A stretch of DNA of 64,000 nucleotides, taken from assembly GCA_050084515.1 (NCBI GenBank), contig CM114271.1, positions 744,001 to 808,000 of the forward strand, written 5' to 3'. Positions 7,984 to 64,000 of the stretch are shown piece after piece. The first letter of the stretch is position 1, and each line of letters opens with the position of its first letter. Position numbers and translations under genes: made by a program. Origin of the DNA: Blasia pusilla. Lineage: Eukaryota. Under the pieces are notes generated by a model. That model was not told the origin of the DNA and searched no databases. It saw nothing but the letters and a program-made list of their open reading frames with translations.

Positions 7984-10900
7984 ATGGATCGCCGCGGGCT
8001 CTTGAAGATGTCGCCGGAGGTCGGAGGGACTGTGGGGAGCTTGTGACAGGAGCACGGGAAAGCTCTGGTATGCTCGGAAACGGTAGCGTGCGATTCGACT
8101 GCTGCGGAGGCTATCGCCACAGGAGCCCCTTCGAATTCGCATCATGGTCAGTACTGGATCCCCGCTCAGCGATGTCCCCCACAGCGGGAGCTCGCCGCGA
8201 TTTCTGCAGAGCTCTGGCGTTTAGGCTCAATTGAATCGTTTCGGGGTTTCGATTCTCGAGCAGAGAGGAGCTGTGTTCTAATTGTTGTGCGTTGCAGGAA
8301 TGGTCGACCTGTGAATTTTCTGTGCTTGTCGAGTCTGGTGGTCGGAGAGAGCTCCGTGAGCTCAAGTGTTTTTCTCGATACCATCTCCTCCTCCGTCTCC
8401 CCAAATTCTGCCTCAGGCTGTTAGGAAGACAGGCATGAGCTGCGACTCGGGAGAAGGAGAATTTTTCAAAACCTCCATCTTCTTCGTCCTGACGGTTTTG
8501 TGGAACGTCTTGTGTGCTTCCAGGAGTACGAGGAATCGCCAGAGCGGTACCCACCGGTGATCCGAGCTCCTCCGATGATCAATGCAGCTAATCCTGCTCG
8601 GCCCGGCTCCGCTCAAGCTTCCAGGATCAACTCCAGCTCTCAGCAAGAACAGCAGCAACGTAGATTTTCCCCAGGTCCTAGCTATGAGAGCACCCGAGCT
8701 CCCAGATCACCACCACCACCATATCTGGACGAGTCTCCCCGCAGATTCGCTGCTGACAGCCCCCCATATTTTCCTGCTCGCCCCCCTCCTCCACCACCAC
8801 CCGGTTTTCTCGATGAATCTCCCCGGAGGTTTGCTGGAAGCTCATCTCCTTATCGGTACTCTGAGGGCCTTCCATTGCCTCCTCCGTATCAGGACGAAAG
8901 CCCGTATCGGTACCACTCCGAACCCCCTTCTCCTCCTCCCAGCTACTTGGACGATGCTCCTCGACGATTCGCAGGTGGGAGCCCAGGCTTGGGAGGTGCT
9001 GCAGGGCTTGGAAGATATGAGACAGAGAGTCCCCCTCATAGATATGTGGACGAGAGTCCTCGCAGATTCTCAGGTTTGTCCCCTCATCGTTACTTGGATG
9101 AGGGCCCATCGAGATACGAGAGGGAGTCGCCTCAACGGTATCTGGAAGATGTGCCACGAAGAAGATACGAAGTTTCTCCCCAGCGCTACTTGGAAGCTCC
9201 TCCTCCTGGCTATGGACGAGGTGATCGATATGATGACAGCCCTCCTGGAGCTTATGCCGAGGACGGTCTCAGACGATTTCAAGGTGGTAGCACTCCTCCA
9301 TCACGGTATGCAGACACTGCTGCAAGATTCGAAGGAGAAGGTACTCCTCCCAGGTACACACCGGACGGGTCGCCCCCTAGTGAGTTCCAACAAAGATTTC
9401 TGGTGGGTAGTGAATCACCTCGATTCCCAAGTAACCGTCCTTCACCCACACGCCCAAGCTACGTTGCAGCAGCAGGAGGCGCCACTCCTCCAAGATATGA
9501 AAGTAGAGCTCTTCCACCTGCGTATGGAAGCCCTTATCGACTCGAAGGGACTCTATCAGCAGCTCCAGCATATATGAGTCCTACTCGGCATGATGGCAGT
9601 CCACCCGGCCCTGGATATCGGGGGAAAGGTGGGTATGAATCTAGTACTCTGCCTTCGGCATATGATGTTGCTCCTACGACAGTATACCCACCTCGACAAT
9701 CACCACCCAGTGCATATGAATCTGAGGCTGGAGCTTCTGGGAGCAGGCGTGGATCCTCTCCTTTCCTCACATCCGATTCTGCAGACAGCACTCCTCGACA
9801 CCGTGATAGCTCATCATCACCTCTATCTGACCATTTTCCATTGAGAGTACCCCCAGGTATGAAACCTGTTTACGGAGGAGAGGATCTCCCGGGTCGCCAT
9901 CCTGATGGCACTCCTCCCGATGTGGTCATGGGTGGTCGGCCTATGGACTCTACTAGTCAGGGTCCTCTTCCTGGTTTTGCGACTGCACCCCGAGGATATA
10001 ATACTGGTGCTCCAGGAGGGTTTGCTGCTGTCCCACCCCAGGGCATTCCTGGAGGCTATGGCATCCCTGATCGTTCTTATCAAAATGTGGCTCATCCTTA
10101 CTTCCGGGATAATCCTACACCTTTCGTACCTGTAGCACTTCCTCGTCGACGAGCTGATGGGTACACAATTCGCACACCTCCTCGGGATGATACTCGCAGA
10201 GCTCCTCGAGACGAGATTTATACTGCTAATGTCACGCCCATTAGTATCGATGAGAAGCTGAAGGTTGATCCATTTTCCTTGTGTTTCTCCGCTCCTTTTC
10301 CTTCGTTTGGTGTTTGCGATGTAGAGTTAATGTCATGAAGCTGAGCGTCTCTCAGCTCCATGTAGGAAGGCTCTCCAGACTCTGGAGAGCCTCACTGCCA
10401 ATTTCGTGTCGACTGTGATGAGAGCAACTGATGGCGTTTCTCTCCTTTTTTGTGGGGTGTCTCATGGAGCATTGAATCTGTGAAGTTGAATAACTTCTTT
10501 CTCCTCCTCCAGTAGCCTTCAGAATAGTCTTTCCATAGATAGCCTTCTTGGAACCTTATGCAGCCTCGCACCTGCTGGGTAGGTGCCAGTTACTTGTATG
10601 TGTGGAGAATGAGGTTTTAGAGGAACGAGAAGTAGTGTATGTCTTAAGAACTCCTGTCAGTTCATTAGGTTTGAGCACTGATTCCAAGGAGCCCAATACC
10701 GTGGAGCCGACGTCCCTACACGAGCTTAACTCTTTCAAAATGTAGTCCCCGACTCTTTGTGCTGTAGATTGCTTGCATGAGAACAGAAAGTGAAATTCAG
10801 TCATATCCCAGATTCAGAGTAAGGTAGTATAGGGCACTCTGTAAGGTTTTGACAGCAGAACTGGAACATAGTCAAAATCTTGCAGAGTGCCCTATACTGC

Positions 10901-13900
10901 CTTACAATGTTCCAATTCTGATCAATGGGAGAGATTCTACTGCCCTTGACTGAGCAAGCAGTGGCTGCCTTAACGTATAGTTCTGGACCTAGCTGGAAGA
11001 TGGTAGTGACAGGGATAGGTGCAGGAGGATAGATTTGTGAAGAAAGTTTCATGCGAGTGACTTGAGTAAGTGTGCGCTGGATAGTAATAATGTTTTCAGG
11101 TGTAATCAGAAGAACTTTACTTTGAATGAGGAAGTCTTGAAAACCAGGATTACCATCGCTGCAGCTTTGGTTAGGGACACCCGGATACTGAATGTGAGGA
11201 AACCTTGTGGTGAAATCAGTGTAGCAATTATGACGTTTGAGATGGTAGATAAGAAAGTGTATCATATCTGAGTTATGAACCTCGTAAACATAAGTTTCTA
11301 GTCCAGCAGCTTTTGCGAGTGAATCTTGACTTCTAAACTCAAAGGATAGCTTTGGTGAAACCAGCTTAGCAGTTTTGTTTCCGGTGGTTCAGGGGTTGAA
11401 TTCATCTATTGGCACTAGATCTTGACCGACCACTCAACTGGAAGAAAAGCTTTAGTGAACGTCGCTTAGCAGTCATGTAGGAGGTGGTTTTGGAAATTCT
11501 TCTAAGTTCACTGTGTTTAGAAATCTTATCCCCACCATTACACAGTTCGCTTTTCCAGTATTGTTCTAGTCCATCCCATCTTACTCGTTTTGTGGTTAGA
11601 GGTAATAGTCCCCTCTCTCAACCCTTGCCAGGTTCTTGAGTAAGGAACTTTCCCTGACAGTTGTCCAGTCAGTAGAGAAAGGGCTGATTTACTTTTTTTG
11701 TTTTCTGACATGGACTACCCTCTACTGAATGTGGGAAGGGATCCAAATCTTAGCAGAACCATACTGCGGGAAAATGTTGCTCAGGTTTCCAGGCTTCCTG
11801 AAACGTAGATTACCATTTGAATCTGAGTGTGGGTCGACGATGTGCAGAATGTGGGACCTCTTCCAGGGAACCCTGGAAATACAACTGGCGGGGCTTGGAA
11901 AGATATGTGGTTTGCACTTGTTTTCATTCTACACATTGGGGGAATCGCTGCTTTGAGCGTCATATTTGGGCTGCATGCAATCAAGAAAACCATTAATACC
12001 TTCGATACCTCAGGTGCCTACCGGATAACCAACTGGTTCCCCCAGCTGGGTGCTGCTGCCATTGTGGGTACCATATTTGCATGCGTCTGGCAAATTGCGA
12101 TCAGGATTGCCCCGGTGTTCATGATATTATTTACAATATGGTCCGGTGCTGCAATTATGACTCTCCTCGGAATTGTCCTGATAGCAACAGGGAAGACCAC
12201 TGGTCTCATTGGCCTCCTGTTCTTCTTTGCTGGTCTCTCACAAGCTCTCTACTCATTTGTGGTCCGAGCAAGGTGAGGACCCAATAACCATCATGTTTCC
12301 TGGATAGTTCTTAGAAAGGGATTTCTGGATAGGAAGCGGTTCATAAGGCCACTGATGAGGTAACCAATAGTTATGCAGAAACTCAAACCTAGGATTTCCT
12401 ATTGGGAAGGACTAGTACTAAGAGAGTTTGTCTGTAAACACGTTTGGAAGCTCAACTGAGAATATTTACTCTCCAGCGGACATGGAAAATATTAATGTGC
12501 ACAATCAAAAGTTTTCAGATGTGTCGAGTTTGCTTATTCCCCCGAGTAGATGAGAATATCAGATCATTGTCCAGTGAGAGTATCCAAGATGACGGTATGT
12601 TGTGGCACACTGTCTAATGGGATCCTTCTCTTGGTGTCCACCAGCAGTTTGTCTACCTTTGCTAATTCCATGTGAATTTTGAATCTTCCATGAATTCTAA
12701 CTTGCTTCTTTTGGTTTTTCAGGATACCCTTTGCTGGTGATATGCTGAGAAAAGTTATCACAGTTTTGAACAAATATCCATCGACATATATTGTGTCATA
12801 CTTAATAGTTTTCGTCAGCCTTGGTTGGACGTCCCTTTGGATATTTGGGGTATCAGGAGCAGCCTTGCAACCTTATTATGCTTTCATCATAGTTGGTTTT
12901 GTGGCGAGCCTGGTGTGGACACTGCAGGTGCTAAGGAATATAGTTCGAATGGCGGTCGTTGGGACGGTGGCAGCTTTCTACAACCATGGGCCATCTAATA
13001 TGCCTAGAATGCCAACGTACATCGCGCTTATTCGTGCCTGCACGTCATGCCTAGGAAGTGTTTGTTTTGGATCCCTGGTTGTTCCCGTTATTGAAATTCC
13101 ATGCCATGTGGTGAGTGTTCTGACCTGTTGGTCATATGTAGCAAATCGCTATTGCCCTGAACTAGGCATGGAGAATGTGTGCAGACCTTGTTTACTTAGT
13201 TTGAATAGGGCTGACTTCATACTGTGAAGCTTGTAATGTTCTATTTTTGTATGGGATATGCTTGGGAGCTCTCAGAGCTTTGTTTGTATGTTCCCTTAGT
13301 GTTTGGAAAGACCCGCCACACACAAGAGAAGGTTTGCCATGGATTATTTGACTCGGTCAAAAGCAGCACAAAGGGTCTTAGGATTTTGCATCATGTTAAC
13401 GCTTCCTTAAATGTCTCACTGATGGATACTCGAAATGCAGTTACGCCGAATCAATGCTCAAGGTGGAACGAATGAGTTTCTCTTTTCCTGCATAGTATGC
13501 TTCCTGGGATGTTTTGATACAATGATCAGATATGCCAACAAACTGGCATATATCCAGGTAAGTTATAGTTCTGTTAGCCCTGCATATATGTTGCATTCGG
13601 AATTGTCTGCATATCATATTGGTGCAAAGTACTCGAGTCTTTACTCACCTGCTTGCTGGAGGCTAGAGACTCGAAGAGGAAGTACTTGGATCCACTGTGG
13701 AAAATTATGCTAGACATCGACTGTTCCTATGGGAGTTGTCCTTTGTTGAGTTTATCAGAAAGTCCAGGCACCTTGATTACATACTACTGACAGTTGGTTG
13801 TGACCAATCAAGGAGCAGACATGTCCCTTGTCCACTGGTCATTAGTTTACCCATGTATTGATAGGCCTTAGTGTACACTCAACTCCAAGGCTGTCAGTAG

Positions 13901-43593: not shown

Positions 43594-45950
43594 TTAATGT
43601 TGTCCAAAAACCTGAAAGTCGGCGGGATTTTCTTCTCCCGGAATTCGCGGTTGTGAAAGGGTCTTAACTCTAGACAGCATAGCATACATAAGCCCAAGGG
43701 AAAATGTAGATTTAACAACTAAAATGCACTTGCCATGTATTATAAGTCCTTGGATTTTATGCCTAGTCATTGCACAATCAAGGCTCAATAAAATGGATCC
43801 AAAATGATCCACTTTTGCTATGACTTCACCAGTGTGCATACTACTCCACATATTTTTCAAAGCATGCTTTTTTAATATTTCTCCTATATCCTCCAAGCTG
43901 ATAATCAGCCTCTTACACACACACACACTCATGAACATACGTCCACATGGGTGAGCGTGATGACATTGTCTCAGATTCTATCATACAAATTATGTGGCGT
44001 GATAGCACATTGTAAAAAAACTTATTATATTGATGTAGGGAATGGTATTCAATATATTGCACAACTCTATCTATGGTGAATATATTCCAAATTTCCCAAG
44101 GAATCGGCATCAAAAAAGTTGACTCCTACTTCTGGGGTGTGACTTCACCAGTTCATGTTTTTCAAAGTATTTGGAACATGTTGAATCAAACCTGCAAGCC
44201 AGATGGTGGAAGTACAACATAGTGGGATGTATGAATAGCACAGAGGACTTGCGATATAGGCTTGTGTACATGTGCGGAGGACTTGAGTCCACATAGGCGA
44301 GAGATTGGGAACAGTATATAATTGGGATATGTAAGGCTATTATTCTTGCCTCTATAGATCGAGGACATTATCTTATTTAACACTGTACCTGATATCATAC
44401 CCAAACAAACGTCATCAAATTCCTCGAGGCCGAGGGCCTTTGATGATTTTGTATCAATATTTAGTGCCCTTGTAGGCTGTGATTTCAGTTCATACTTTAT
44501 AAGGTAAAGGGACTAATCGATGTTTGTTACGTGTTGTATGTTCATGTGCGTTCCCCAAAATAAAAGTACAACTAGGTGGTATGGAACAACATTTCTATGA
44601 TCTATCTCAGGCTTATAATACTTCCATCACATAGTCATGGGATCAATAGATGGACGCATGTCCATGTTTATATCAGTAGGGAATGTCAACTTACAGTGTG
44701 GGGTCTGGGACCTAGTTCACTTTATCATACAGACTCCTTGTTTACATGTGTGAATTTTTCTTCACAACATAGGTATGCAAAAAAGTGTCAATAAAGGATG
44801 TTGTAACGTCTAGAGTAGGACGTAGGTTGTGGCATATGGCAACAGATCTTAGATGTAATCAAATCAATGTCTTCATATTTTATCCATAAAATCATGTGGC
44901 AATGTAAACTTCCCCTTCCCCATAGTTCATATCGATAATTAACTATATGCCCAGGTATCTTAGAACCCCTAAGTATGTGGTAATGAAGGCATGCTCGTAA
45001 CCGAACAAGGAACAACATGCCACGCTCGATTGGGCCGTCCCTCCAAGTAACGTTGGGATTCATTTTGCGTAACACTTGCTCAATGTCATCTCTTTCGACC
45101 CACCTAGTGTCAGACAGTTTTTTAGACATAAGCATAACAAAGAAGTGCAGCACTCCCCATTTCCTTACCATGGCCCTAAGATTGTGCAAGTGGCGACGAT
45201 GCCATGTTGGGCTCCCTTTATAAGTAACATAGTGCTTACATAATCTACCATACAATTCCCCATTAGATATATCTAGATTGTCCCTCCTCAAATTCTCCAA
45301 ATCCTGGTTTAGTATGCAAACCCTTGTTGATGAGGCAAGTGCAATAGATTTCCTTAATTGATGCATCAATAGTGGATATGGCTTATGGAGGATAAATGTA
45401 GTAAATAATTGTCTTGTGCGATGGTGCATGTATTCACCAAGAGATCCACTTCCAAAGTAATGACCACGTAAGTATGGGAATTAATAAGAATGGAAAGATC
45501 CCATTTCAATGATAAGGCGGCTATCTGATAAAACACCACAGCTATTACTAAGAAAGTTATGACGTAAGTGGCTATTTTGCCTCATATACAGTCACCCACT
45601 TTTGAATATGTCTGATGACATTCTCTGCTTCATAGGAAGAGTATATTGCACATCCTAGAGTATGTTAAGTTTGAAACTGTACGGATGAAAGCTCATACTA
45701 TCGATCATACTACCCTTTTTTGTGATGCTTAAATGATTCTCTGAACAGACTCAAGGGATCAAATGACTAATCTTGTGTTCGGACTTGGAAGTTCAATTAG
45801 GGGTGGGTAGTCCCTATAGATTGGATTTACCTTTAAATTTACAGCTATAACTTTTCTAAATAGGGTGCAAAGAAATTCCTTATTATTTTCATTGCCCTCC
45901 TCGCCACCCCAAGAGATCAATGGATTGTCCAATAGAGATGTCACACGAAA
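43594..45950 (-). mobile_element. Decayed Helitron Rep/helicase (HUH endonuclease plus PIF1-type helicase)
   Basis: Rep motifs GSPTW..NLRAMVRKWGVLHFFVML and YELWGRGSLHCHMILW in 44788-45429. Helicase motifs AMTRHKIQG and FSLGLMYAMLSRVK in 43594-43938. The reading frame is fragmented. Confidence 0.85.
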
Positions 45951-50887: not shown

Positions 50888-52700
50888 AACGATGGCCGCC
50901 CCCAACAACGTGCTTCACACATGCTCCTCATGAGCATCAACAATAGGAGTCGTCGTACTTGCTTCTCCCATCGCCCTCCGTGCCTGCACACCGACAACAT
51001 CACCAACTCTCCAGGAACTTTGATCAGGACCCATCGATGGTGTCCTCATTGCCTCGGACAACGTGAAAGACTGAGGAAGCCTAGTATGTTTCCTAGGTTC
51101 CCCTCATTGTGGATCCAACTCTGCGGTTGCACCATACATCACAACTACGGTTGCCTCCATCTGGGCAACCCCGCACATCCAACCAGGATTCTCCAGATTT
51201 ATGGCTGCTCCATATGATGTCGATGCCACGGATCCGGCATCGGGTAACCTCAATGCCATAACGGCAATCTCCTCCTGTAGCTGTTGTATTTGAGCAGCCA
51301 TCCCAGGCTCACGTCCGGCGTCTCCCTCGGCGCATCTAGGTGGTGGTACTCCACCTCCTCCACGGGCAGCTCCACCACCGTGTCGGGCAAGTCCAGCTCC
51401 TCGTCCTCCAACGGGACCACTTGGTGCACGATCTCTAGGCCCACTCGGACCGGATACTCGCTCTGGTGCCCTCTCTGGCCCTCGGTTTGGACGTAACTCA
51501 GGACATAAACTGAAACACCTGGCGCGTGTATGACCATACCTGTGACAATAGGCACACTGATAACCTCCTGGTGCAACACCATCTCCTCCTCCATGCAGAG
51601 GCACACGTCCATGACCGTGACGAGTGCAATCGCGTTGATGATGGGCTCCACGACATGACCAACAAGTAATAGTAGGCGGCTGCTGCTGAGCCGCATATGA
51701 AGGTGCAGGTCTCTATGGCACGGCCCCCCGATATCCTCCCTCAGCTTGTGGTGCCACAGTTGACCTATCTCGAGTCACGTTCGCAGGTAGTGCGCAGCAA
51801 TCGTGGATCGCTCTCGCCTTGAGAACCCATGGTGGCTACGCTCTCCTACGCCATGTTGCGCTCAATGTTCTCAACGGTCCTAAAAACATCTCTCAACGTA
51901 GGGGGGGTGTTCATATGAAGCACCCCCTCCCGCACCCGTGTCCTAGGGTCCGATCCAGCATCGTGTACCATGACTGGATAGCCCGAGCCTCTGTCAACCC
52001 CTGAGTGACGTTGATCAACCGGGCGCAAGTGAGTGTAAGCCTCATGCAAACTCTCACCCGGGCGCCTCTGGACATCATGGATGCTCTGCAACTTCTCCGT
52101 TCGTACCCCCTGGTAGCTCGCCCTCAACTCAGCAAAGAACTCAACCACGGGGTTGAACTTGGGACGAACACGACTAGACGGTGCAATTGCTCCCGTGCGA
52201 GTGACCCCTCCTAAAATGTCACTAGTGGAAGAGGAAGTAGCCTCTCCTAACTCCTCCTCCTCATTTGGGAACGGCTCCGTCCATGACACATAATGTGGGT
52301 TATAGTAGTGCCTCTATGCCTCGATCTCATGTGCATATCTGAGAGAACTCATGGTAATCATCAATGGGCGCACCCTCTAAATGCTGGAACATACCGTTCC
52401 ATGCTATAAACGGGTTGAACTCTCTAGAGTTCCTGGCCCGTTGGGAGTCGCACCAACTCCTAAACTCTGCTATGAAATCGTGCCTACTGCACCTGAAAAC
52501 CTACGCGGTCCTCTACCCCGATCGTCCATCTCGTACGCCCAAGTGGTAGGACCACTCACAATGTGTGGCGATGTGCTCACAAACTCCTCTACACGCTCCC
52601 CTCATCTGAAGACGACACAAAAGGAGATCGAGGTGGTCTCTCATGTGGAGACCCTCGAAACCTCACACCACTCCGGGTAAACCCTCTAGAGCTACTCTCA
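50888..52700 (-). pseudogene. Retrotransposon gag relic with a CCHC zinc knuckle
   Basis: FFAELRASYQG..QRRPGESLHEAYTHL (gag-like, 51846-52289) and CAYCHRYGHTRARC (51104-51604). The frames are broken and the relic abuts the CACTA end. Confidence 0.8.
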
Positions 52701-54399
52701 AGTCCACTACCGTGCCTCTCAAAATCGTGAAAGGAGGCCATGATGGCCCTCGTGCCCCTCTCACATAATCACTCTCAACCTCGCGAGTAATCCCTCAATC
52801 ACTCATCCCAAACATGCGGCACTCGATCTATACTCTCCCTCCCCGAGACGTGTAACGTGCGGCAGCAAGCGGCGTGGTGCGGAAAATTGACTAGGCTATC
52901 ATCTTCTCGACAACCTACCCTCAACTCTGGATATCCCACACAGGTCTATGTCCCTTAAACCACATACATAAATGATGCTCTCAGCATCCACACAACCCAA
53001 TATCCCCAAATAAACTACCCAAATCCGAGAATCCCTCACGCATCCAGGGTAAAGGACCAGAATGGATAACCTGAACACATGTCGATGTCGCTCCTCAACA
53101 ACTGCAAATCTCGATCCCAACTTGGTCGTGGAGACAACTCCTCCAATCAGCAAGTCATACTCCTCCCGTACTGACGGTGCTCAAAACTCCTCGATGGACA
53201 GTGCGGTTCCAATGAAACGGTGCGGCATTGTAGGCGGTACAAAATGGCTACGAATGGCACGGCCCTCGATGGTGGGATGCGGCACTTGGCGGCATACCCT
53301 CCTCAATCATAAATAAACCCACACTCTGCTCCACAATGACGATGCGGCTCCGCGATCGAGACCGTACGTTGCGGCCACAAGGGGCACAGCGCGGCAATCG
53401 GCGGCGCGTTGCGGCTACGGGCATCACGGCACGGTACTCGATCGTCGTCAAGCGGCTACCAATAACAACATAGTAGCATGAAATCAAAACTCAAACACCA
53501 AAACCGGAGGTCATTTGCCATGACTGGTTGACGATGAAACTTCGATGACGGTGGCGGGCAAAAAAAACAAACGTTTGTTAATGCAGAGAATCAATGAACA
53601 TCGTGGAAGACCCTCCACTCCGTAATTGTGGCAATGGCAACCAAAGGCTGGAAAACAGCCGAATGCGGCTCTGAGCAACGCTGGGCAACGGCAACGGCCG
53701 ATGGTGGCCAGTGGACCGTGGACCGTTGCACGTTGATGATCACGGTTGACCATTGATGGTGACGATGGACCGTTGATGGTGATGGTTGACCATCAACGAT
53801 GACAATTGACCGATGATTTTGTCTATGATGGCGACGGCCGCCGCCGGCGTGGCGGCTGGTTTAGGGTTTGAACAATTTAACCCTAAAAATTGCCTAACAA
53901 TGGCAGTTTTGCAAGATTGACCATAACTTTTTACTCGCAACTCCAAATTACGCATTATTTTTGCACAACGTGCACAACTTCATGATCTACAACAATGTCA
54001 AAAAATATTTGGAATTGGACATTCAAGTAAAAACTGACAGGGATTGTCGTAAAGCCCAATGTCTCTTTCTCCTACACAAAATTTGGTAGCGCTTCCGCGC
54101 TGATTTCTCCCAACCAAAATGTAAAACCTGTAAAAATACATATATGCAAGCTGCATGATGCTCCCAAGAGCACCAACATGGGGCAACCCGCATCCATAAT
54201 CAATCCCTATCAGAAATTGGGCAACGCTTCCGTGCGCCACTCTTCCACACAAAAAATCGGCAAATGCAAAGATCAATCAAAGCAACCCTTGCTCCGGTGA
54301 GCACTCCCATGAACCGCTGAACGGGAACACGGTCCCCAACCTGCAAAAACATCGAGTGACCAGCGAGCTCCCCCATGAAGCTTTCTCACTCTCTCATTC

Positions 54400-55870
54400 T
54401 CTCTTTGTAAAGTAAGATCCAATCTCTCTCACAACACCATAGTTCTCACATGTGTACACTCTCACATGTCTCTCTCAATGTCAAACTAAACCCACTCTCC
54501 TAATGAGAGACTTGGGTTACATACACAAGGCAAGCAAGACCATAGCTCCGCCGCCTCATGCCAAAAGTTCAACAAAGAGAGAATGAGCTCTCAAGCTCTC
54601 TCTCCTTGAGGTATACCCCTCCCCTCTCCCAAGCTCTTTCCATGGTAACCTATTCTCCCAAGTCACCTCCTTGGCTCTTGACCTGATGTAGGAGGTCAAG
54701 GGCCACTTACCAACAATAGAAAGTTGATCATATACTCAAAATGGTACTTACTTAAAATAGTAAGTTTCTCAATATGGTTCCAAATGAGCCGAAACCAAGG
54801 GAAAACCTGCTCTCTCAGGTTTCCTAAGGCCTTAGCATGTCATCCTCAACCTTCTGAGTCTGTCTTCCACTACTCACGAAGGCGCTCTACTAGATCTCAC
54901 CAATCTATCCTAAAAGATGTGACACTATACATATGAGACTCTCAAACTCGCGAAGAATAGATCATGGCCAAATTACTCCCTCAAGAGGTATAATCCACTC
55001 TCATTGGAAGAGCAAGTAAGCTCAATGCCATCCATTCAAGAGTGACAAGAGGAACTCGAGAACTAAAGTTCAAGGTGAAGAACCCTTGAAAGTCCCTCCT
55101 CTTTATATACTCATAAGGGATCCATAAGAGTACAAAATAAGGCCAATCTTATCTTGTGTCGTATGACTTCCTCTCAAGGCTTAGATAATCCCATTTTTTA
55201 CATAAGTAGATTACTTTTTTCCTCCTAAAATATCCTCATATATCTATTTCATATCCTCCCAACTATCCTAACTATTATAGTCTTGACTTCTTCACTAACC
55301 AAAAATACTTTAGTTTTATTTTTGATAGTACATCGAACCACAATTTTTCTTTTATTACCTCTTTTCCTAGAGTTGGGCCCGCATAAATGAGGCACCATTA
55401 AGAGATTTAAACATTAAATTCTATTTTTCTAAGTTAATTATTTAATACTTATAAAAATTCTCTCTAACATTGATAAGCGTGAAATATACATGTTTGATTA
55501 TTTTACTACACGACGATGTTCTGTACAATAAAGTATCTAATTAAATAAAATATCCTTAACCATAAATGGTTATCTAGCTTTGCAATCAAGCATCAATAGG
55601 ACGTGGCGAGATATAAGCACCACCATATGAGACACTATTTAAAATCAAAGATGTAAGTGATGTCCAAATGTCCCTTATGTCCTTCATCTTGCATAAAAGT
55701 GGGCCTTTCCATAAAAATGGGGTGTATGGATCTTAAAGCCAAGGGATTAGGGGATATCACCACCCGTATGTCACGCTCTCTCATACCCCCAATTAGAGCG
55801 TCTTAAAAATGGACCCTAGGATCTTACGTCCTAATCTATAATTTGCTATACAGTCAAAATAGGGGGTATC
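54400..55870 (-). mobile_element. LTR of a minus-strand retrotransposon, boundaries approximate
   Basis: 54414-54922 is repeated at 59714-60224. Minus-strand TATATAAAG at ~55100-55110. The ggggtatca end at ~55870 is followed by a pyrimidine tract and a weak chromodomain-like relic at 56070-56150. Confidence 0.55.
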
Positions 55871-56712
55871 AAAAATCTCCCTATCCGAGAGTTCTTGGTC
55901 ACCCACACTTGTCTCAACTGAGTTTTCTCAGCTCCAAAACGGATAGCTCTTGAGCTTCTCGTTTTGGTATTCCCAGAAGGCTTCAAAGTCCCTGCTCCTT
56001 GCTAGTTTCTACTCATAAATATGTGGGTGTGCTGGCTTGACATATTTCCAGATCTTTTAATATGTCTCTCTATAAAATTGTTACATCCTCTTGTTCCATA
56101 AAAAAGCAAGCTAGTGTTCGGTCTAATATCGTCACCCGGGTTTTATTTGTTGAGGATGATCTCTGACACCCCCTAATCCTTCCGCAAGTGTGGAAGGATG
56201 AGGGGGGTGTCAAAGATTCACCTCTTACAGTCAAACGTCCAAGTCCATGTTGTACCACCAATAACATAATCTCCAACTGGGCATGCATTGGAGCCACAAC
56301 AATAGCATGCGTTTGGTGCACATAATCATTCTTCCTATTGGAGTACTTCTAGTTACTCCCAACACTCAGGCTACAACAATTCCAAACAAGCATGAAACAA
56401 AACAGATATATATCTCAGAGTTTTTTTTTCCACAAGGTTTAAAGTTTCTCAATTGTAACTAACATAAACACATCCAAATACCAAAAACTTACCTTCACTC
56501 TGCAAACATCATCCTAAGTGACATGTCGGAGTTACCTGATGACAATTTTCCCCAATTCATCATACCTAATGATGCATAGTTAAGGTATGGTGAAAATTTG
56601 GCCCTTGAACAATAACACAAGGAGAGTAGTATAACTAATCATGGAATGAGCCATCTTATTGATGAGCAAAAAACATGGGCACATGCCTTTTGCGATAGGA
56701 AAAAAATAGCAA

Positions 56713-56963
56713 TCAATATTATTAAAAGAGGACGGGGTTTAGGAAACCCCTCCTCTGGTATCGACACATAGGCTTTTTCAAGCCTTCCCGTGTCGACACG
56801 TGGACAAGAAGACTTAATTAAGATGCACGGGTGAACAAACACGTAAGTAATTACAATAAAGTAGTATTTATTAATTCATATTCTTCCTCTCTAATAGCAC
56901 AATATTTTTAGTTCGTATCGGTTGGGAGGTTCTTCACCTATGTGGAGCACGGGCACCAACTAG
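56713..56963 (+). mobile_element. Short non-autonomous Helitron (251 bp)
   Basis: A|TCAATATTATTAAAAG 5' end. 3' end is gtggagcacgggcaccaaCTAG|T, with no TSD. Confidence 0.75.
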
Positions 56964-59581
56964 TTGCATATGGTAAGTACATCATATCATTCTATATTTC
57001 TTTATATTTTCCTCACGATCCAATCTTCCTAGTATATTCACATGCCAAATACTACTCCACTTTCTGCAACTTATCTATTGCATGCATGGTTTTGTTATTA
57101 ACACGACAGACGTCGAAAAGGAAGCTCTGATCCACAATGACATTGACTATAAGAATCAGGAGTTAACAAGGGATGCAACCAACAAGCAATGTTCTCTACT
57201 CACAAGAGGCATACGCCTTCAAAAATTCCGTGAGCTTAGGGTCATAATGCGCATGCCGCTTACTATGCTTATGAAGCTATCCTGTGCTAAAGGTATTCAT
57301 CTACTTTCATGCATGAAATCTTCCAGAGAGAGTGATGACATCAAGTCCTCTCCAAATACCCCTATTTATGGCAACTCCAATCATAGCACATACTCTCGTA
57401 GTAGAAGTGGTCGGAGTGGTCTAGTTCCTTCCCATCCAGACTATAGGGTGAGACATGGAACTTCAATCTCATCTCCCATCCACCTCAATAACAAAAATCC
57501 TACATATGAGTTAATGCAACTTCCAGAATCATCGAATGAGAAGAAGTATCACTCTTTTTTAGCTGTGTATGCCATTTTTTATGCCCTTGCACTATAACTT
57601 GTGCACTATTTAAGTCCATTTTTTGCTACATATCTCATAAGTAACTATGTCAAAAATCAGAATGCTAAAGTAGTTTCCTTTTGTTGATAATGAAGATCTG
57701 ATGCAATGCTCTTTCCATCAAATGCATTAATGTTATACCATGTTCCCGTTCTATTACCATTGATGTGATGTTGGCCTTGATTTGAGCCAGTATTTTGTGG
57801 TGGCATTTTCACTCCTAGAGGTGTCTGCTTATTTCAATGTTGATACATTTTTGAGCTTGGAGCTGCGTGGTTAACACTAAAGCTACTAGACATTGATATT
57901 GACTTATCTAATGTATCTTTTTGGATTTCATCCTCCATAGGAATGTAAATGTTGGTTAAAGTGTGTTTGTAGATGTCGCATAGCAATTACCTAAAATTGA
58001 TCATCTGCTACATGCAATTATGTTGTATTTGCGGCTTAGTTTTGCGAAGTTTTTCAATAGGACATTATCTCCATGTCCTTATAGCCAACTTGTAACTTTA
58101 GGTCTCATATATTCTTTAATTTCATTTTCCTATATCATCATTATGCAGATGGATGTATATGCTTTCATGATAATTTGGTTGTTTGCAAATACCTTTTGTC
58201 AATTTTCTATTTTTCACCATAAACTTTAAATGACGAGGAGTCTTTTATAGGATTTTATATTCTTTCCAATCCTGGATACCTTAGATACCTACTTGGGCAT
58301 CTCAATCTACATATACTACTCTTGACTACCTCATACTTCAACTTCTCTCAATGTTATTTGTCCATTGTAGTTGCTTTGGCATAGTTTTCCACCTATGTTA
58401 ATCATACCCGACGTGGGTCCAAATGCATGTTCATCACCACAGTTGCATACATATTACATTATTGGCTTTGCACAACATTATTCAAGTTCATATCCTTTGA
58501 TTTGTGTATCCCGATTGCAATTTCGTCCCTTCCACTTACTAGATTTGAAAGTTCCATAGTGCATGAAATCCAAGAGCGTTGCAACAACATTGCTATGCTT
58601 TCAAAACATAGGAGGAGGCATTTTATAGCGGCGAAATATCATTGTGAAGTGTAATTTCCTCCACCAAGAAATGCAACTTGCAAAAATGCCTTAGTCCTAA
58701 TGCATGTCTATGATGCAACAGTTGCCAATATAAAGGCTCCGAGTTCAAAGTACGATGAATCTGATCGTCAAGTCTCCCTACTCAATGACGTCGCAACCTA
58801 TCTAGAGGAGGATATTCTAATGAATAATGTATAGATTAAAGACTAAACAGACACTTTGGCTACTACAAAATAGGAATTCCTTGCATTTGTTGCAACTATG
58901 TGACCCATCATTGGAAGACATTTTTGGATTCAACAAGTTTGTAAAAGCTATGATAATAATATTAAACATGTCAAATGTAGCAAGTCTAACTTGAAAGGGA
59001 ATTCCCAATCTTGTGACAAGCCATCCCTCATCGACATCTATCCTTTGTGGTATTTTATACATGCAAAATTTTTTGTCTACCCATGTCAATCTTCATTTTG
59101 TTACACGGCAACATCTACTCACCTCCTATCAAGAATAACTCTTTTTTGATTAATTACCACTTCTTTATTTTCAACAGAAATGAGTTTCAAAGCGTGCAAT
59201 ATGTAAATGCTTTTTAGATAGTGCATACTATTTCTATTCTCTCAATTTTCACTGTTGGAATTTACATTCCATATGTCATATTTCCAACATTTCCATTGTT
59301 TCAATTTGGCTATACTTCGGAGTTTTATAGAAATCACTCGCCATGCTACCTTGGAGGTCTTCATACTCTTACATTATAGACCATAATAAGTAGTTTATTA
59401 TTAAACACCAGTTGCTCTTTTAGTTCTTTTGTTTCGTGCCTCAACCAAATCATAAGAGGGCTATCTGTAAAATTGGTTGCGTCCTCCATGCCCATTTACT
59501 AACTCTAAATTGCCAAAACCATTCCCACAATTTTAGCCTGCCACATATCTCTCATATCCAATTTCTAAGCATGGGCTCCTA

Positions 59582-60224
59582 TGTCGTGCGCATACACATC
59601 GCTACATAATATACATCGTTGTCACCGAACACACACACAAACACGCACGATCTCATGCTAACTCATGACATCCAAACAACGAGACAAGAAATACCAAAAT
59701 ATCTCCAATAAAATAAGATCCAATCTCTTTCACAACACCATAGTTCTCACATGTGTACACTCTCACATGTCTCTCTCAATATCAAACCAAACCCACTCTC
59801 CTAATGAGAGGCTTGGATAAGACACTCAAGGTAAGCAAGACCATAGCTCCGCCGCCTCAAGCCAAGAGGTTCAACAAAGAAAGAATGAGCTCTCAAACTC
59901 TCTCTCCTTGAGGTATACCCCTTCCCTCTCCCAAACTCGCTCCTCGATAACCTATGCTCACAAGTCACGTCCTTGGCTCTTGATCTGCTGTAGCAAGTCA
60001 AGGGCCACTTCCCAAAGTGAAAAGTCAACTCTAAAAAAATGGAAACTTACCAAAAATAATCAGTTTCTCTATATGGCTCCAAATGAGCTGAAACGGAGGA
60101 AAAACTTGCTCTCTCAAGTTTCCCAGAACCTCAACAAGTCATCCTTAACCTCTTGAGCCTGTCCTCCTCTACTCGTGAAGGAGCTCTACCAGATCTCTCC
60201 GATCTATCCTAAAAAGTCGTGACA
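59582..60224 (-). mobile_element. Chimeric LTR-like unit: ~126 bp copy of the 60227 LTR end fused to ~510 bp related to 54414-54922
   Basis: 59582-59708 is about equal to 60227-60353; 59714-60224 is about equal to 54414-54922; the unit is bounded by TG...CA. Confidence 0.7.
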
Positions 60225-60534
60225 ATTGTCATGCGCATACACATCGCTACATAACATACATCGTTGTCACCGAACACACACACAAACATGCATGATCCCA
60301 TGCTAACTCATGGCATCCAAACAACGAGACAAGAAGTACCAAAATATCTCCAATCTTCCTCCTAGTTGGTGGTTAGGTCCCTCTAACTCCAGATAACCAT
60401 CTATCCCTACCTACCATGACATACATCTCTCGGACGCTAAGTGCAAGAAATTTGGGTGCTCATGTGGCCCCATTGTTAGTCGCCTTCTTGTCATCCATGT
60501 CACAGACACAAGTCGGAATGTAGAACTACCTACT

Positions 60535-60675
60535 CTATATATATTTGGGACACATCAATCGTCCATGAGAAACCCTAGTGAGAGGTGGTGTCAAGCATGC
60601 CATATGCTATCCTCTCAAACATCCATCACAGACTAGCATAGTGGTTGCACCACGGGCAGAACCACACAACATACA
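60535..60675 (-). pseudogene. PHD finger at the integrase C-terminus
   Basis: CMLCGSARGATTMLVCDGCLRG*HMACLTPPLTRVSHGRLMCPKY shows the C4-H-C3 spacing, with one in-frame TAG (probably TGG originally) and the last Cys changed to Tyr. Confidence 0.88.
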
Positions 60676-63279
60676 TCGCAAGTCTGTAGGAACTACTGCT
60701 AAGTTGAGATCAAATGTATCATCAATGTTCGGAAGGTGACACGGCACACAGTTATGCACATGGTCCTTCCAAATCATACGATCGCATCCCTCCAATAAAA
60801 GAACACCTGATGGCAAAATCTCACGCACTCTCAAGATGGTGCGACCTACAGTCACATCCAATGTCGTGGGTGCCGTCTGCTGCAAGTAGATATAGTCTCC
60901 CTGATGAAAGGTTTGGATAGTAGGTCAATAACCGCCCCCCCAAATAGTCGCAACCTCACGTTGTAACCTGGTCTGTCAACACCTCACGTTGTAACCTGGT
61001 CTGTCAACACCTCAACTGCTGCACTGTAATGACTCTACACTCGATCTAGGAAGGTATATGCTACTCCCTCACTCGCTTTGTGAGGAAATGCAACCAACTC
61101 TATCCACTTCAAGAAGTGCTCGACCATCACCAACAAATAACGATTATGGCGCTCTGTCAAAGGCAAAGGTCTTGCAAAATCCAAACTCCATCTATAACCT
61201 AAATCCATGATTGGAAGTGGATGCAACTGTGAAGTCGGTGCTCGAACTCGATCACATACCTCGCATCTGGCAACAAATTGTTGAATGTCAATATGCATAT
61301 CTCGCCACCAATACTGAATTTGGAGCAAGATGTACTTCCGCTTCACTCCAAAATGACCCAGATCCTCATGGGCATGACGCACCAAACGTGCTCTCTACGG
61401 AGGATGAGACACTACACGCACTCTACCATCCTCCCATACTCGCAACACATGTGTCCCCTCTCACCATAACCGTCTGGCTCACTGTAGGATCCGATCCTGC
61501 TCTCTAGCACCCATTGTGCTCGTGACGCTGCCAATACGCAGGTAGTCCAAGACCAATCCATCGTCGTGAACGTCTCGTCCATCTGTCATCTCCTCACCGA
61601 CATTTGCATCTAAGGACTCTCCATCAAACCTCGCCATCGAAGTCTCAAAAATCTGGCTCTCCATAGCCAACAAGCCCAAATAGGCTCACTCATGCCATCC
61701 TTGCACCCACTCCTCATCACTCTCACCATACCAACGAGCTCCAGTCGCATCTTGCTAACTCGAGCATGGGTTACGGCTCAAACCATCTGCATCTTGGTTG
61801 AGCGTCCCAGATCTATGCATCATCTGGAAGTCATACTCGTGCAACAAAAGAGCCCACCTCGCAAGCTTCCATGTAAGCTTGTCGGACTCCATCAACCACC
61901 TAAGTGGATGATGATTAGTAATGATGGTAAAGTGATTTCCGAATAGATAACATCTGAAATGTGCAACAACCCACACTGTAGCCAAGCACTCACCCTCATA
62001 CGAGCTATACTTTGCCTCTGTAGAGTTGTTCGAGCCACTAGCATAAGCCACCACAAACTCTCTACCATCATCTTCATGCTGGGTGAGCATGGCTTGAAGC
62101 CCCAACATGCTCCAATCGGTATGCAACTAGAAAGGACGCCCCCTGATCCGTCTCCTCAATATGGGCGCAAACATCAATCTATCCTTGAGCATCTGAAATG
62201 CTCTCTCTTGTTCATCCCCCCAGTGCCACCCTTGATCCACCTTGGTCAGCAAGGTCAGCGGCTTTGCAATCAAGCTAAAATCCTTGACGTACCGTCGATA
62301 GAAGTTCGCCAATCCCGTGAATGCACGAACTCGACTCACATCTGTATGGCGTGGAATGCGTGGAATGCGTGAAATAGCCTCTGCCTTTATCTGTTGCACA
62401 CCAAGGCCCCCTAGGTATATCGTATGACCCACGTACTCAATCTGGTTGTAGAAGAACTTGCACTTGCGTGGATGTAGCTTCAGCCCATGTAATTGCAATC
62501 GTCAAAACATCTCCTCTAGATGTTTCTCATGCTCCTCAACCGTGGCGCTAAAGACTATGATATCATCAATATAATACCTAGCAAAATCCACACCTGCCAA
62601 GATCCTATCCATGACCCTCTGAAACTCAGCCAGGGCGTTCTTTAACCTAAATGGTAAGAATCGCCATAGGTACAAGCAATCCTTCCCGTGAGGATCGATG
62701 CCCCAAAATGCCGTCTTTTGCCTTTCCTCCAATTTGATAGGCAATTGATGGTATCCGGCTTGAAGATATAATGAAGTGAAGACCTTTGCATGCTTGTAGG
62801 ATCGTCGGAAGAGCGGTGTATCACTCGACAACTCAATGCGGATCCCTGGACCCTTCAGTGTACCAAAATCATGCATACTTAATGCAAAACATCTCCTATA
62901 ACTCCTAAGGAACTAGTGTATCCGGCGCCGCTCTCCTCTTGTCAACTTAGGGCCAATATCTGGCTCCCAAGTCTCCATCGTGACTATGGTAGGACTCTCC
63001 GGTGCGGATGTCAATGGTTGTTATGGTGCAACCCCGTCTCGGATAATAGAACTCTTATCTCCACGCGCAGTACCCGAAACCATGCTTGATGCTGTGGCTA
63101 TCATCTCCTGGCGTATCTGCAAAACATCCGAAGAAGTCCAAGGGTACCTCTCCTGATCACCCCTGGTGTGTCGATCTCCTCGAGTCTTGCCCCCGGCCAT
63201 TGCCTCAACTATCTCGGTAGGCATGGGCTCACCAACGCAACAGTTGTGATCTATCTCATCCTCAAACGACCTTGCTCAA

Positions 63280-64000
63280 CTACTCCTAAGTTGAGAATCC
63301 ATGTTAAGCAGTTCATGTCCATCGCCTGATCCAAGACATGATGTCATGATGCCTTTGATAGTGACGGTACTTCCATCACTCCTAGGGTAATTCCATCGCT
63401 TGCTCTCGCTCATCGGCGTTGGGCTCCACCAACCTCTGTACTTGGTCATCCCAAACTAAGCCAGGTCCGGCCTCCTTGTATGCAAAGGAAGCAAGAAAAC
63501 TCAAAAATGTGGGAATGGTTTCCCGTGGCATGCCAATCTTGTTGACCACAGTCAACGATGGTCGATCAACGTGCCTCATTGCCTGTGATCGACGACCTGG
63601 ATCCACAATAGAATCCACCAAAAAATCTAAGGGGCGCTCCACTCTTGCATATGCCCTCCGAAATACCTCGTGTGATACCAAGTTTGTCCACCAAAGACAC
63701 GGACGATATGCTCGTGAACCCATACTCGCCGCATCCAACAAAACTGCCGGGCCGATCCATGCGCGCACCTGATGTGCATTCGTCACCACACAGGACCTCG
63801 AATCATCCAAAATTGGTACATTCTCCAGAATGTATGCTCGAGGACGAGATTGATGCTCTTGCAAGTGTTGCAAGATCCACATCATCTCCCAAAACAACAT
63901 GGACCGAGAGTCAGCTAATCCGCTACCTCGTCCAGCACTTGACAGGCCCTAACATGGCCAACCAGCAATGACCACGACTATGGCCCCTACCAGTTCCAAG
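63280..64000 (-). pseudogene. C5 cytosine-specific DNA methyltransferase domain encoded inside the retrotransposon
   Basis: Motif IV VVIAGWPC*GLSSAGRGSGLADSRSMLFW (stop at 63951-63949), motif VI YILENV, motif VIII DAASMGSRAYRPCLWWTNL, motif IX-like EPNADEREQAM. After a frameshift comes motif X-like VLDQAMDMNCLTWI. Motif I would lie beyond 64000. Confidence 0.9.

Follow-up and report, generated by a model that had tools for sequence, protein, structure and literature searches.

Chromoviruses are Ty3/gypsy retrotransposons that carry a chromodomain at the C-terminal end of their integrase. Host DNMT3A/3L combine an ADD reader and a catalytic domain on one polypeptide, and the reader gates catalysis. 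The element described here is a decayed retrotransposon of Blasia pusilla with remnants of a DNMT3-like C5 cytosine methyltransferase and of a PHD finger. It is located in a stretch of 64,000 nucleotides (assembly GCA_050084515.1, contig CM114271.1, positions 744,001 to 808,000 of the forward strand), which was analyzed as a whole and is termed the window; all positions refer to it. The pairing of the two domains is a rule of the family to which the element belongs, not an accident of the copy in the window.

Several related systems have been described. The chromodomain of the chromovirus MAGGY has been connected with H3K9 methylation (Gao et al., 2008, as cited in 10.1101/2021.11.30.470311). 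The citing article, a survey, noted PHD and Chromo domains together with reverse transcriptase and integrase domains. KnitGypsy-Dnmt3 from Klebsormidium nitens is a DNMT3-bearing Gypsy element, and its terminal repeats are DIRS-like in the order A-coding-B-A-B, as stated in a figure legend (de Mendoza et al., 2018; PMC5890265). Such elements are named 'streptophyte Gypsy-DNMT3' in a 2026 preprint, which also presents EpiLTRs (10.64898/2026.05.21.726589). These are long terminal repeat (LTR) elements from Cymbomonas and Euglena with an adenine methyltransferase (DAM), a DNMT sister to DNMT4 and a chromodomain. In Gypsy-7a_cRei from Chlamydomonas, the PHD stands between RNase H and integrase according to a legend, and the text portion available mentions no DNMT (PMC9940879). 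REM1 and CR1-like non-LTR elements (Kapitonov and Jurka, 2003) are cited in the same article as bearers of PHD fingers.

The Blasia element and its decay

Positions 64000 to 59582 on the minus strand are the 3' two-thirds of a dead Ty3/gypsy-type retrotransposon. Pfam matches and translation revealed, in this order, a DNMT3-like methyltransferase, a reverse transcriptase, an RNase H, an integrase and a PHD finger (Table 1). The reverse transcriptase, RNase H and integrase follow each other on the minus strand as expected for Ty3/gypsy elements. The methyltransferase remnant (64000-63388) lies upstream of the reverse transcriptase on the same strand; a DNMT3-type domain inside the polyprotein is characteristic of the Gypsy-DNMT3 elements. 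The initial annotation of this DNA had proposed a single element holding a PHD finger behind the integrase together with a DNA methylation writer, and the remnants of both domains, the writer being a C5 DNA methyltransferase, bear this out.

The methyltransferase is truncated by the window end, beyond which about the first 78 residues of the domain fall. A stop codon stands directly after the catalytic cysteine (GWPC*), and the motif ENV is readable. The homology shifts to another frame and extends to about 63227. The profile PF00145 remained just below its cut-off (21.8 versus 22 bits). In a tblastn search with the intact relative P0212 (1516 amino acids, same domain order), query residues 79-279 aligned to the remnant. 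The best relatives include Calypogeia fissa (62% identity) and Marchantia polymorpha (52-56%), besides Riccia and Sphagnum.

The translation of 60532-60924 on the minus strand comprises, in a single frame, a 65-residue integrase C-terminal region (60924-60730), a linker and a Cys/His finger (60675-60541). A PHD finger behind the integrase C-terminal region in one frame, as annotated initially, was thus confirmed; the start given for that feature, 60535, coincides with the Pol stop codon (60537-60535). The search with PF00628 that had been suggested as a check yielded 33.0 bits (cut-off 24, E 6.2e-8) with an in-frame TAG read as X, and residues 84-126 matched profile positions 1-45 of 47. Without read-through, no PHD match was obtained by Pfam for the open reading frame (ORF) of 105 amino acids (60924-60610) that ends at this TAG.

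The ligand spacing of the finger is C-x2-C-x11-C-x2-C-x4-H-x2-C-x14-C-x2-Y. Seven of the eight zinc ligands are retained (C,C,C,C,H,C,C,Y), the last Cys being replaced by Tyr at 60543-60541. The TAG at 60609-60607 occupies a position held by W, Y or F in most aligned relatives (alignment A1), and a 'PxGxW' stretch is degraded to 'SHGRL'. The window copy thus lacks a complete C4HC3 set in an open frame. The annotated C4HC3 pattern is recognizable, but the missing eighth ligand and the internal stop had gone unmentioned. Likewise, the integrase tail is in frame with the PHD, whereas the catalytic core lies upstream in another frame and is half deleted, which had not been mentioned either. The rve profile matched the core with positions 6-57 of 102 only and stayed below its cut-off (15.5 bits).

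With a query of 131 residues covering tail and PHD, 1613 cluster representatives were matched at E<=1e-3, of which 476 reached E<=1e-10. The top match shares 57% identity (E 1.9e-42), and most alignments span the integrase tail and the finger. The match of both parts is far beyond chance.

Decay was read from the window aligned to P0212. The alignment consists of four segments in two reading frames with 13 in-frame stops. In the reverse transcriptase, P0212 residues 507-590 (about 84) are missing. A second deletion removed query residues 1231-1364 (about 134), that is, the second half of the integrase core and the part following it. The corresponding tblastn gap lies between 60996 and 60990, and a tandem duplication of 28 nucleotides (nt) sits at the junction. 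With this copy dead, a function can be ascribed to the family only, not to the window locus. Similar damage is present in relatives. Substitutions of Cys ligands, counted in 42 loci, are Cys to Tyr (G-to-A) in 24 of 35 cases; these copies are related and the events not independent. The Cys-to-Tyr exchange in the window is the same kind of change. On reading the codons, the TAG would be so as well, the closest relatives having Trp (TGG) at its place. The pattern suggests a transition-driven decay of silenced copies. The element has a CpG observed/expected ratio of 0.70, compared with 0.58 for the window.

Constant pairing of methyltransferase and PHD finger

PF00628 was detected in 21 of 21 scanned hits of the tail and PHD query, and integrase domains in 20 of them. 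The PHD scores of relatives range from 31 to 50 bits, and long hits show the order reverse transcriptase, RNase H, integrase, PHD. Co-occurrence with the methyltransferase required a more sensitive profile: PF00145 is insensitive in this family, finding a DNMT in only 3 of the 21 PHD-bearing proteins, and was replaced by a family profile. This profile was trained on the same protein set. Full-length domains reached E values of about 1e-120 in the interval between RNase H and integrase, and these scores leave no doubt on the presence of the methyltransferase despite the shared training set.

The protein sample consisted of the 150 best integrase-tail/PHD hits. Where 1000 or more residues precede the tail, the DNMT is present in 15 of 15 proteins; lowering the limit to 800 residues gives 16 of 17, and to 500 residues 26 of 30. 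P0029, the one protein without it at the limit of 800, begins with the reverse transcriptase; P0212, its 71%-identical relative, has the DNMT further upstream. As these protein sets were chosen via the PHD region, the presence of a PHD in all of them is partly circular. Metagenome loci and a set of 120 chlorophyte relatives are less biased toward the PHD. A metagenome scan with P0212 alone gave 131 pattern matches, none of which was confirmed; a second scan used alignment A2, and the best 80 of 499 confirmed loci were evaluated. Room for both domains was available in 37 loci, of which 29 carry both, three the PHD only, three the DNMT only and two neither. A PHD occurs in 45 of 52 related loci with room downstream. 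In the 120 best relatives of a chlorophyte DNMT-integrase region, PF00628 is present in 118 (precomputed annotation). The copies are related, and the counts are not independent events.

All eight exceptions among the 37 loci are fragments, i.e. truncated or rearranged copies. DNMT-only loci are cut before the Pol end, L041 is rearranged and L080 truncated. Complete members without a DNMT were considered and rejected: the PHD-only loci L001, L002 and L043 lack the whole ORF for Gag, protease and DNMT and are truncations. No intact member without either domain was found among the proteins and loci examined. The initial annotation had suggested testing the co-occurrence of PHD and DNMT across family copies and would have been contradicted by a PHD missing from most members; the counts show the former and speak against the latter.

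Two clades differ in domain order. The bryophyte clade, nearest to the window, includes P0212, metagenome loci and a Marchantia gene model. Its order is DNMT, reverse transcriptase, RNase H, integrase, PHD. The protein ends 4-9 residues past the finger, with the Pol stop 4-9 codons beyond the last Cys, and all eight zinc ligands are invariant in 15 proteins. The chlorophyte clade, with named members from Scenedesmus, Haematococcus, Monoraphidium and Chromochloris, shows the order reverse transcriptase, RNase H, DNMT, integrase, PHD, followed by a tail of about 300-360 residues. The PHD stands directly behind the integrase barrel in both clades, and the position of the DNMT differs between them. 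The protein and metagenome searches suggest a lineage much wider than one charophyte.

The methyltransferase is of the DNMT3 type. PDB matches of the DNMT from the Marchantia relative P0009 are solely DNMT3A/B/C (24 of 24), and the family consensus retains the motifs FGG..GL, CQD.S.AG, EN and ERE..GY..G.T. In the nearly intact locus L003, ORF1 (1369 amino acids) encodes Gag, a weak aspartyl-protease match and the DNMT. ORF2 (1047 amino acids) follows in the same frame after a single TAG and encodes reverse transcriptase, RNase H, integrase and PHD; its best PDB match is Ty3 Gag-Pol (E 4.4e-98). In six Marchantia gene models the protein stops 82-85 residues past the DNMT domain, and several proteins begin shortly before the reverse transcriptase, which fits a layout of two ORFs. 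P0212 and P0008 run from the DNMT through Pol without an intervening stop. The separating TAG of L003 (5083-5085) stands in the context GAT TAG CAG TTA, which is similar to a leaky motif of plant viruses, UAG CAR YYA. A programmed read-through was not established as a family feature: ten other loci have ACA at the aligned position, in a poor alignment (23-26% identity).

P0226, a chlorophyte relative, carries a PHD followed by a chromodomain. It is the only chromodomain bearer among the scanned relatives, and PF00385 is absent from all 120 best chlorophyte DNMT-integrase relatives in the precomputed annotation. In the window, the Pfam scan of the translations did not find PF00385, and no chromodomain follows the integrase C-terminus. 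The initial annotation had the PHD replace the usual chromodomain; the position is equivalent, but a replacement is not supported, and P0226 has both domains in succession. In chlorophyte relatives such as P0057, P0062, P0079, P0101 and P0132, a tail of 300-360 residues follows the PHD and closes with a conserved block, roughly 90 residues long, that has no Pfam match. A hidden chromodomain in these tails was rejected, because the C-terminal block is common with P0226 and the chromodomain of the latter is not. Some members of the chlorophyte clade contain a G-patch (PF01585, precomputed annotation). In the ESM Atlas, the nearest feature-space cluster (score 0.94) comprises 80 integrase proteins, 99% with a PHD, most commonly from Mollusca; integrase-PHD fusions may exist outside the green lineage.

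Possible roles of the finger

The nearest solved PHD fingers by sequence, profile and fold are those of Drosophila Lid, human KDM5A/B/D (PHD1), CHD4/5, PHF12, KMT2C/D and WSTF, and further of ATXR5, UHRF1/2, DPF2/3, BAZ2A/B, BHC80 (PHF21A), ORC1b, KAT6A/B and AIRE. Unmodified H3 tails are named in the titles of several matched PDB entries (3zvy, 3t6r, 4q6f). An acidic loop with hardly any aromatic residue connects ligands 2 and 3 (alignment A1). By its sequence class, the finger would be a reader of histone H3 with unmodified lysine 4 (H3K4). The mark is the one that the initial annotation had cited for the ADD domain of DNMT3, and the link to H3K4 finds support in these neighbors. In the predicted model of P0028, the beta-barrel of the integrase (pLDDT 77-95) and the finger (pLDDT 90-96) are joined by a flexible linker. 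The best fold matches over both parts are the Tudor-PHD cassettes of PHF1, MTF2 and UHRF1; a different orientation of the two domains keeps the TM-scores low (about 0.27).

The favored explanation, considered somewhat better than an even bet, is a green-lineage family of Ty3/gypsy elements in which a DNMT3-like methyltransferase is accompanied by a PHD serving as chromatin tether. Placed on the integrase of active copies, the PHD would attach the intasome to chromatin, as the chromodomain does in chromoviruses. The finger would bind the N-terminal tail of H3 when K4 is unmethylated. Binding would steer the integration away from promoters marked by trimethylated H3K4 (H3K4me3) and toward silent or non-promoter chromatin. 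The DNMT would be a separate module, which in at least one intact relative is the product of the ORF on the Gag side, and need not act via the PHD. The PHD is fixed behind the integrase while the DNMT moves between clades; this ties the finger to the integrase and not to the DNMT, which in turn favors the tether. Tethering to K4-unmethylated chromatin appears as the likeliest role.

Several observations weigh against this explanation. The window copy is dead, with its stops, two deletions and a broken finger, and most related copies have decayed as well, a strictly intact finger being present in only 10 of 51 metagenome loci with a tail/PHD match. The two copies in the window, 4.7 kb apart, are too few to show targeting. 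The ligand is deduced from the sequence class, most of the matched PDB proteins preferring H3 with unmethylated K4. Beyond K4, members of this class recognize different features (K9me3, K14ac, R2, A31 of H3.1), and some bind non-histone partners. The partial circularity of the protein sets also belongs here.

A coupling of reader and writer is the next explanation, and a rather doubtful one. The PHD would stand in for the ADD domain of host DNMT3 and direct or license the methylation of K4-unmethylated chromatin by the element, including the new copy. DNMT and PHD co-occur almost without exception, the methyltransferase is of the DNMT3 type with only the catalytic domain seen by Pfam, and the PHD is similar to readers of K4me0. 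Given the order DNMT-integrase-PHD of the chlorophyte clade, both domains could reside on one mature protein. In the bryophyte clade, to which the window belongs, reverse transcriptase and RNase H lie between them, however, and the in-frame stop of L003 places them in different ORFs. To our knowledge no processing sites are known, which is counted against the coupling, as is the relocation of the DNMT between clades with the PHD staying on the integrase. The reader-writer element of the initial annotation therefore holds as far as both domains are found in one element, but not as to a direct coupling. For the clade of the window, the coupling is less well supported than the tether; it is possible especially in the chlorophyte order.

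The finger might instead bind a non-histone target, such as a host protein, a nucleic acid or an integrase subunit, or serve as a structural zinc module. This is regarded as improbable. PHD fingers of the UHRF1 type bind non-histone peptides according to the titles of PDB entries 6iiw (PAF15) and 8xv7 (Stella), but the closest solved relatives are overwhelmingly histone H3 readers, and the finger holds the place that a chromodomain has in chromoviruses.

H3K4me3 is a common ligand of PHD fingers, and readers of this mark have a cage Trp two residues before the zinc His. A steering of integration to active promoters by H3K4me3 reading would follow this general habit, and one fold match is a UHRF1 PHD-H3K4me3 peptide entry (3sow). 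It is nevertheless quite improbable: the family consensus has Gly two residues before the zinc His, acidic, not aromatic, residues occupy the stretch from ligand 2 to ligand 3, and the 60 best profile matches contain no classical H3K4me3 reader, with no ING, BPTF or TAF3 entry among them. An accident of the window copy, i.e. a captured host exon or a chance Cys/His pattern, has nothing but the decayed state of the copy in its favor and is practically dismissed by the 476 cluster representatives matched at E<=1e-10 across tail and finger together and by the PHD in 45 of 52 related loci.

A more far-reaching proposal combines reading and writing in succession and is offered as speculation with a small chance of being correct. 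A Ty3/gypsy superfamily of chlorophytes and bryophytes would possess a split de novo methylation machinery, land in K4-unmethylated chromatin and then write a methylation pattern of its own at or near the new copy, with the DNMT3 catalytic domain and the K4me0-reading PHD acting together; the PHD would be a second, independently evolved reader borne by an integrase, next to the chromodomain and for another mark. If so, the methylation set by the element itself would shape its treatment by the host epigenome.

Repeats, surrounding features and related systems

Table 1. Features of the retrotransposon family in the window
Feature	Position	Strand	Evidence or remark
DNMT3-like C5 cytosine methyltransferase remnant	63388..64000	-	truncated by window end
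Reverse transcriptase remnant	62420..62999	-	RVT_1 E 3e-11 on ORF 62502-62912; tblastn segments
RNase H, Ty3/gypsy type	61833..62222	-	RT_RNaseH E 1.1e-29; RT_RNaseH_2 E 2.5e-18
Integrase H2C2 zinc-binding domain and N-terminal half of catalytic core	61035..61394	-	Integrase_H2C2 E 2.3e-14
28-nt tandem duplication at deletion junction	60953..61014		Tandem Repeats Finder: 2.2 copies, 100% match
Integrase C-terminal beta-barrel (SH3/Tudor-like), ending in family motif 'NCxPCHLP'	60730..60924	-	alignment A1
PHD finger, broken	60541..60675	-	PF00628 33 bits with X at stop
Pol stop codon	60535..60537	-	two codons past finger
3' terminal split repeats A-B-A	59582..60354	-	element end at 59582
Second partial copy, same family, same orientation	51026..54924	-	blastn and tblastn

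Downstream of the Pol stop, the minus strand carries the repeats A (60354-60227), B (60224-59709) and A (59709-59582). Over 128 nt, the A copies share 94.5% identity. The 3' end is thus a split A-B-A and not a simple LTR; the window lacks the 5' end of the element. In relatives, one B precedes the coding region on the 5' side, and the 3' side is formed by A-B-A. This layout, B...coding...A-B-A, is found in L026, L044, L059, L017 and L062, with A-B-A directly after the PHD.

The second copy lies 4.7 kb further downstream, is oriented like the first and represents the 5' part of another family member. Its 5' B repeat (54924-54408) is 84.6% identical to B of the first copy (blastn). A gag remnant (52517-51026) matches the N-terminal residues 8-499 of the Marchantia Gag-DNMT proteins P0009, P0011 and P0012 (tblastn), and CCHC-type motifs occur in the ORF 51104-51712. 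No DNMT or Pol homology was detected after the gag remnant by tblastn in the window. Further Pol copies were not found in the window by tblastn; only a gag fragment is present elsewhere. The spacer between the two copies (54925-59581, 4.66 kb) is AT-rich (about 37-40% GC) with short ORFs only, and has no repeat match elsewhere in the window. About 46 nt at 94-141 match, inverted and with 87-89% identity, the start of both A repeats and may be a fragment of another family copy.

Outside the elements, an ORF at 44788-45480 (minus strand) contains a Helitron helicase-like N-terminal domain (PF14214, E 5e-8). An ORF at 12694-13227 (plus strand) matches the plasma-membrane choline transporter family (PF04515, E 1.5e-23) and is probably an exon of a host gene, so that the region mixes genes and transposons. 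An open frame of 637 amino acids at 8425-10338 (plus strand) lies in the most GC-rich part of the window (55%) and has no Pfam match.

DNMT-bearing Gypsy elements and PHD-bearing retrotransposons are each known; the constant pairing with a PHD at the integrase tail is the new aspect within the texts searched. Full-text searches of the literature retrieved no description of a DNMT and PHD family in bryophytes or chlorophytes, nor of DNMT-bearing Gypsy elements whose integrase ends in a PHD; in the texts searched, Gypsy elements with a DNMT come from a single charophyte. The accessible text of PMC5890265 and one supplement do not mention a PHD; its Figure 4c may show the domain. KnitGypsy-Dnmt3 is similar in its Gypsy-type Pol, its DNMT3-type methyltransferase, which is intronless in K. 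nitens, and its streptophyte host. Its repeat order A-coding-B-A-B corresponds to B...coding...A-B-A of the window family, compared by the legend description only. The host is a charophyte, whereas the best hits of the window element come from liverworts and Sphagnum; no K. nitens sequence was among the named hits of the protein searches.

The published PHD-bearing retrotransposons, among them a green-lineage Gypsy, likewise use the PHD as an accessory domain, for which a role in avoiding harmful insertions has been proposed. In Gypsy-7a_cRei the PHD is listed between RNase H and integrase, in contrast to the integrase-tail position and the constant DNMT3-like pairing found here. EpiLTRs also unite a DNA methylation writer and a histone reader in a single LTR element. 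Their domains and origins differ, with a DNMT4 sister, DAM and a chromodomain versus a DNMT3-like methyltransferase and a PHD.

The window itself contributes only a dead copy. For the family, the constant pairing with a DNMT3-like enzyme offers a natural system for mobile elements that read and write host chromatin, and experimentally workable hosts are among the named hits (Marchantia, Haematococcus, Chromochloris). Compared with host DNMT3, a DNMT3-type catalytic domain is likewise associated with a zinc finger resembling H3K4me0 readers, but in the family reader and writer are widely separated within the polyprotein, or each lies in an ORF of its own. The likeness to chromoviruses is a histone-reader domain that follows immediately on the C-terminal barrel of the integrase and is presumed to act in the choice of chromatin for integration. 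The chromodomain, for which this function has been shown, is the textbook case of a retrotransposon reading histone marks for its landing site. Here, the reader is a PHD predicted to belong to the unmodified-H3K4 class, and a second type of reader at the same position, for unmethylated H3K4, would widen that principle.

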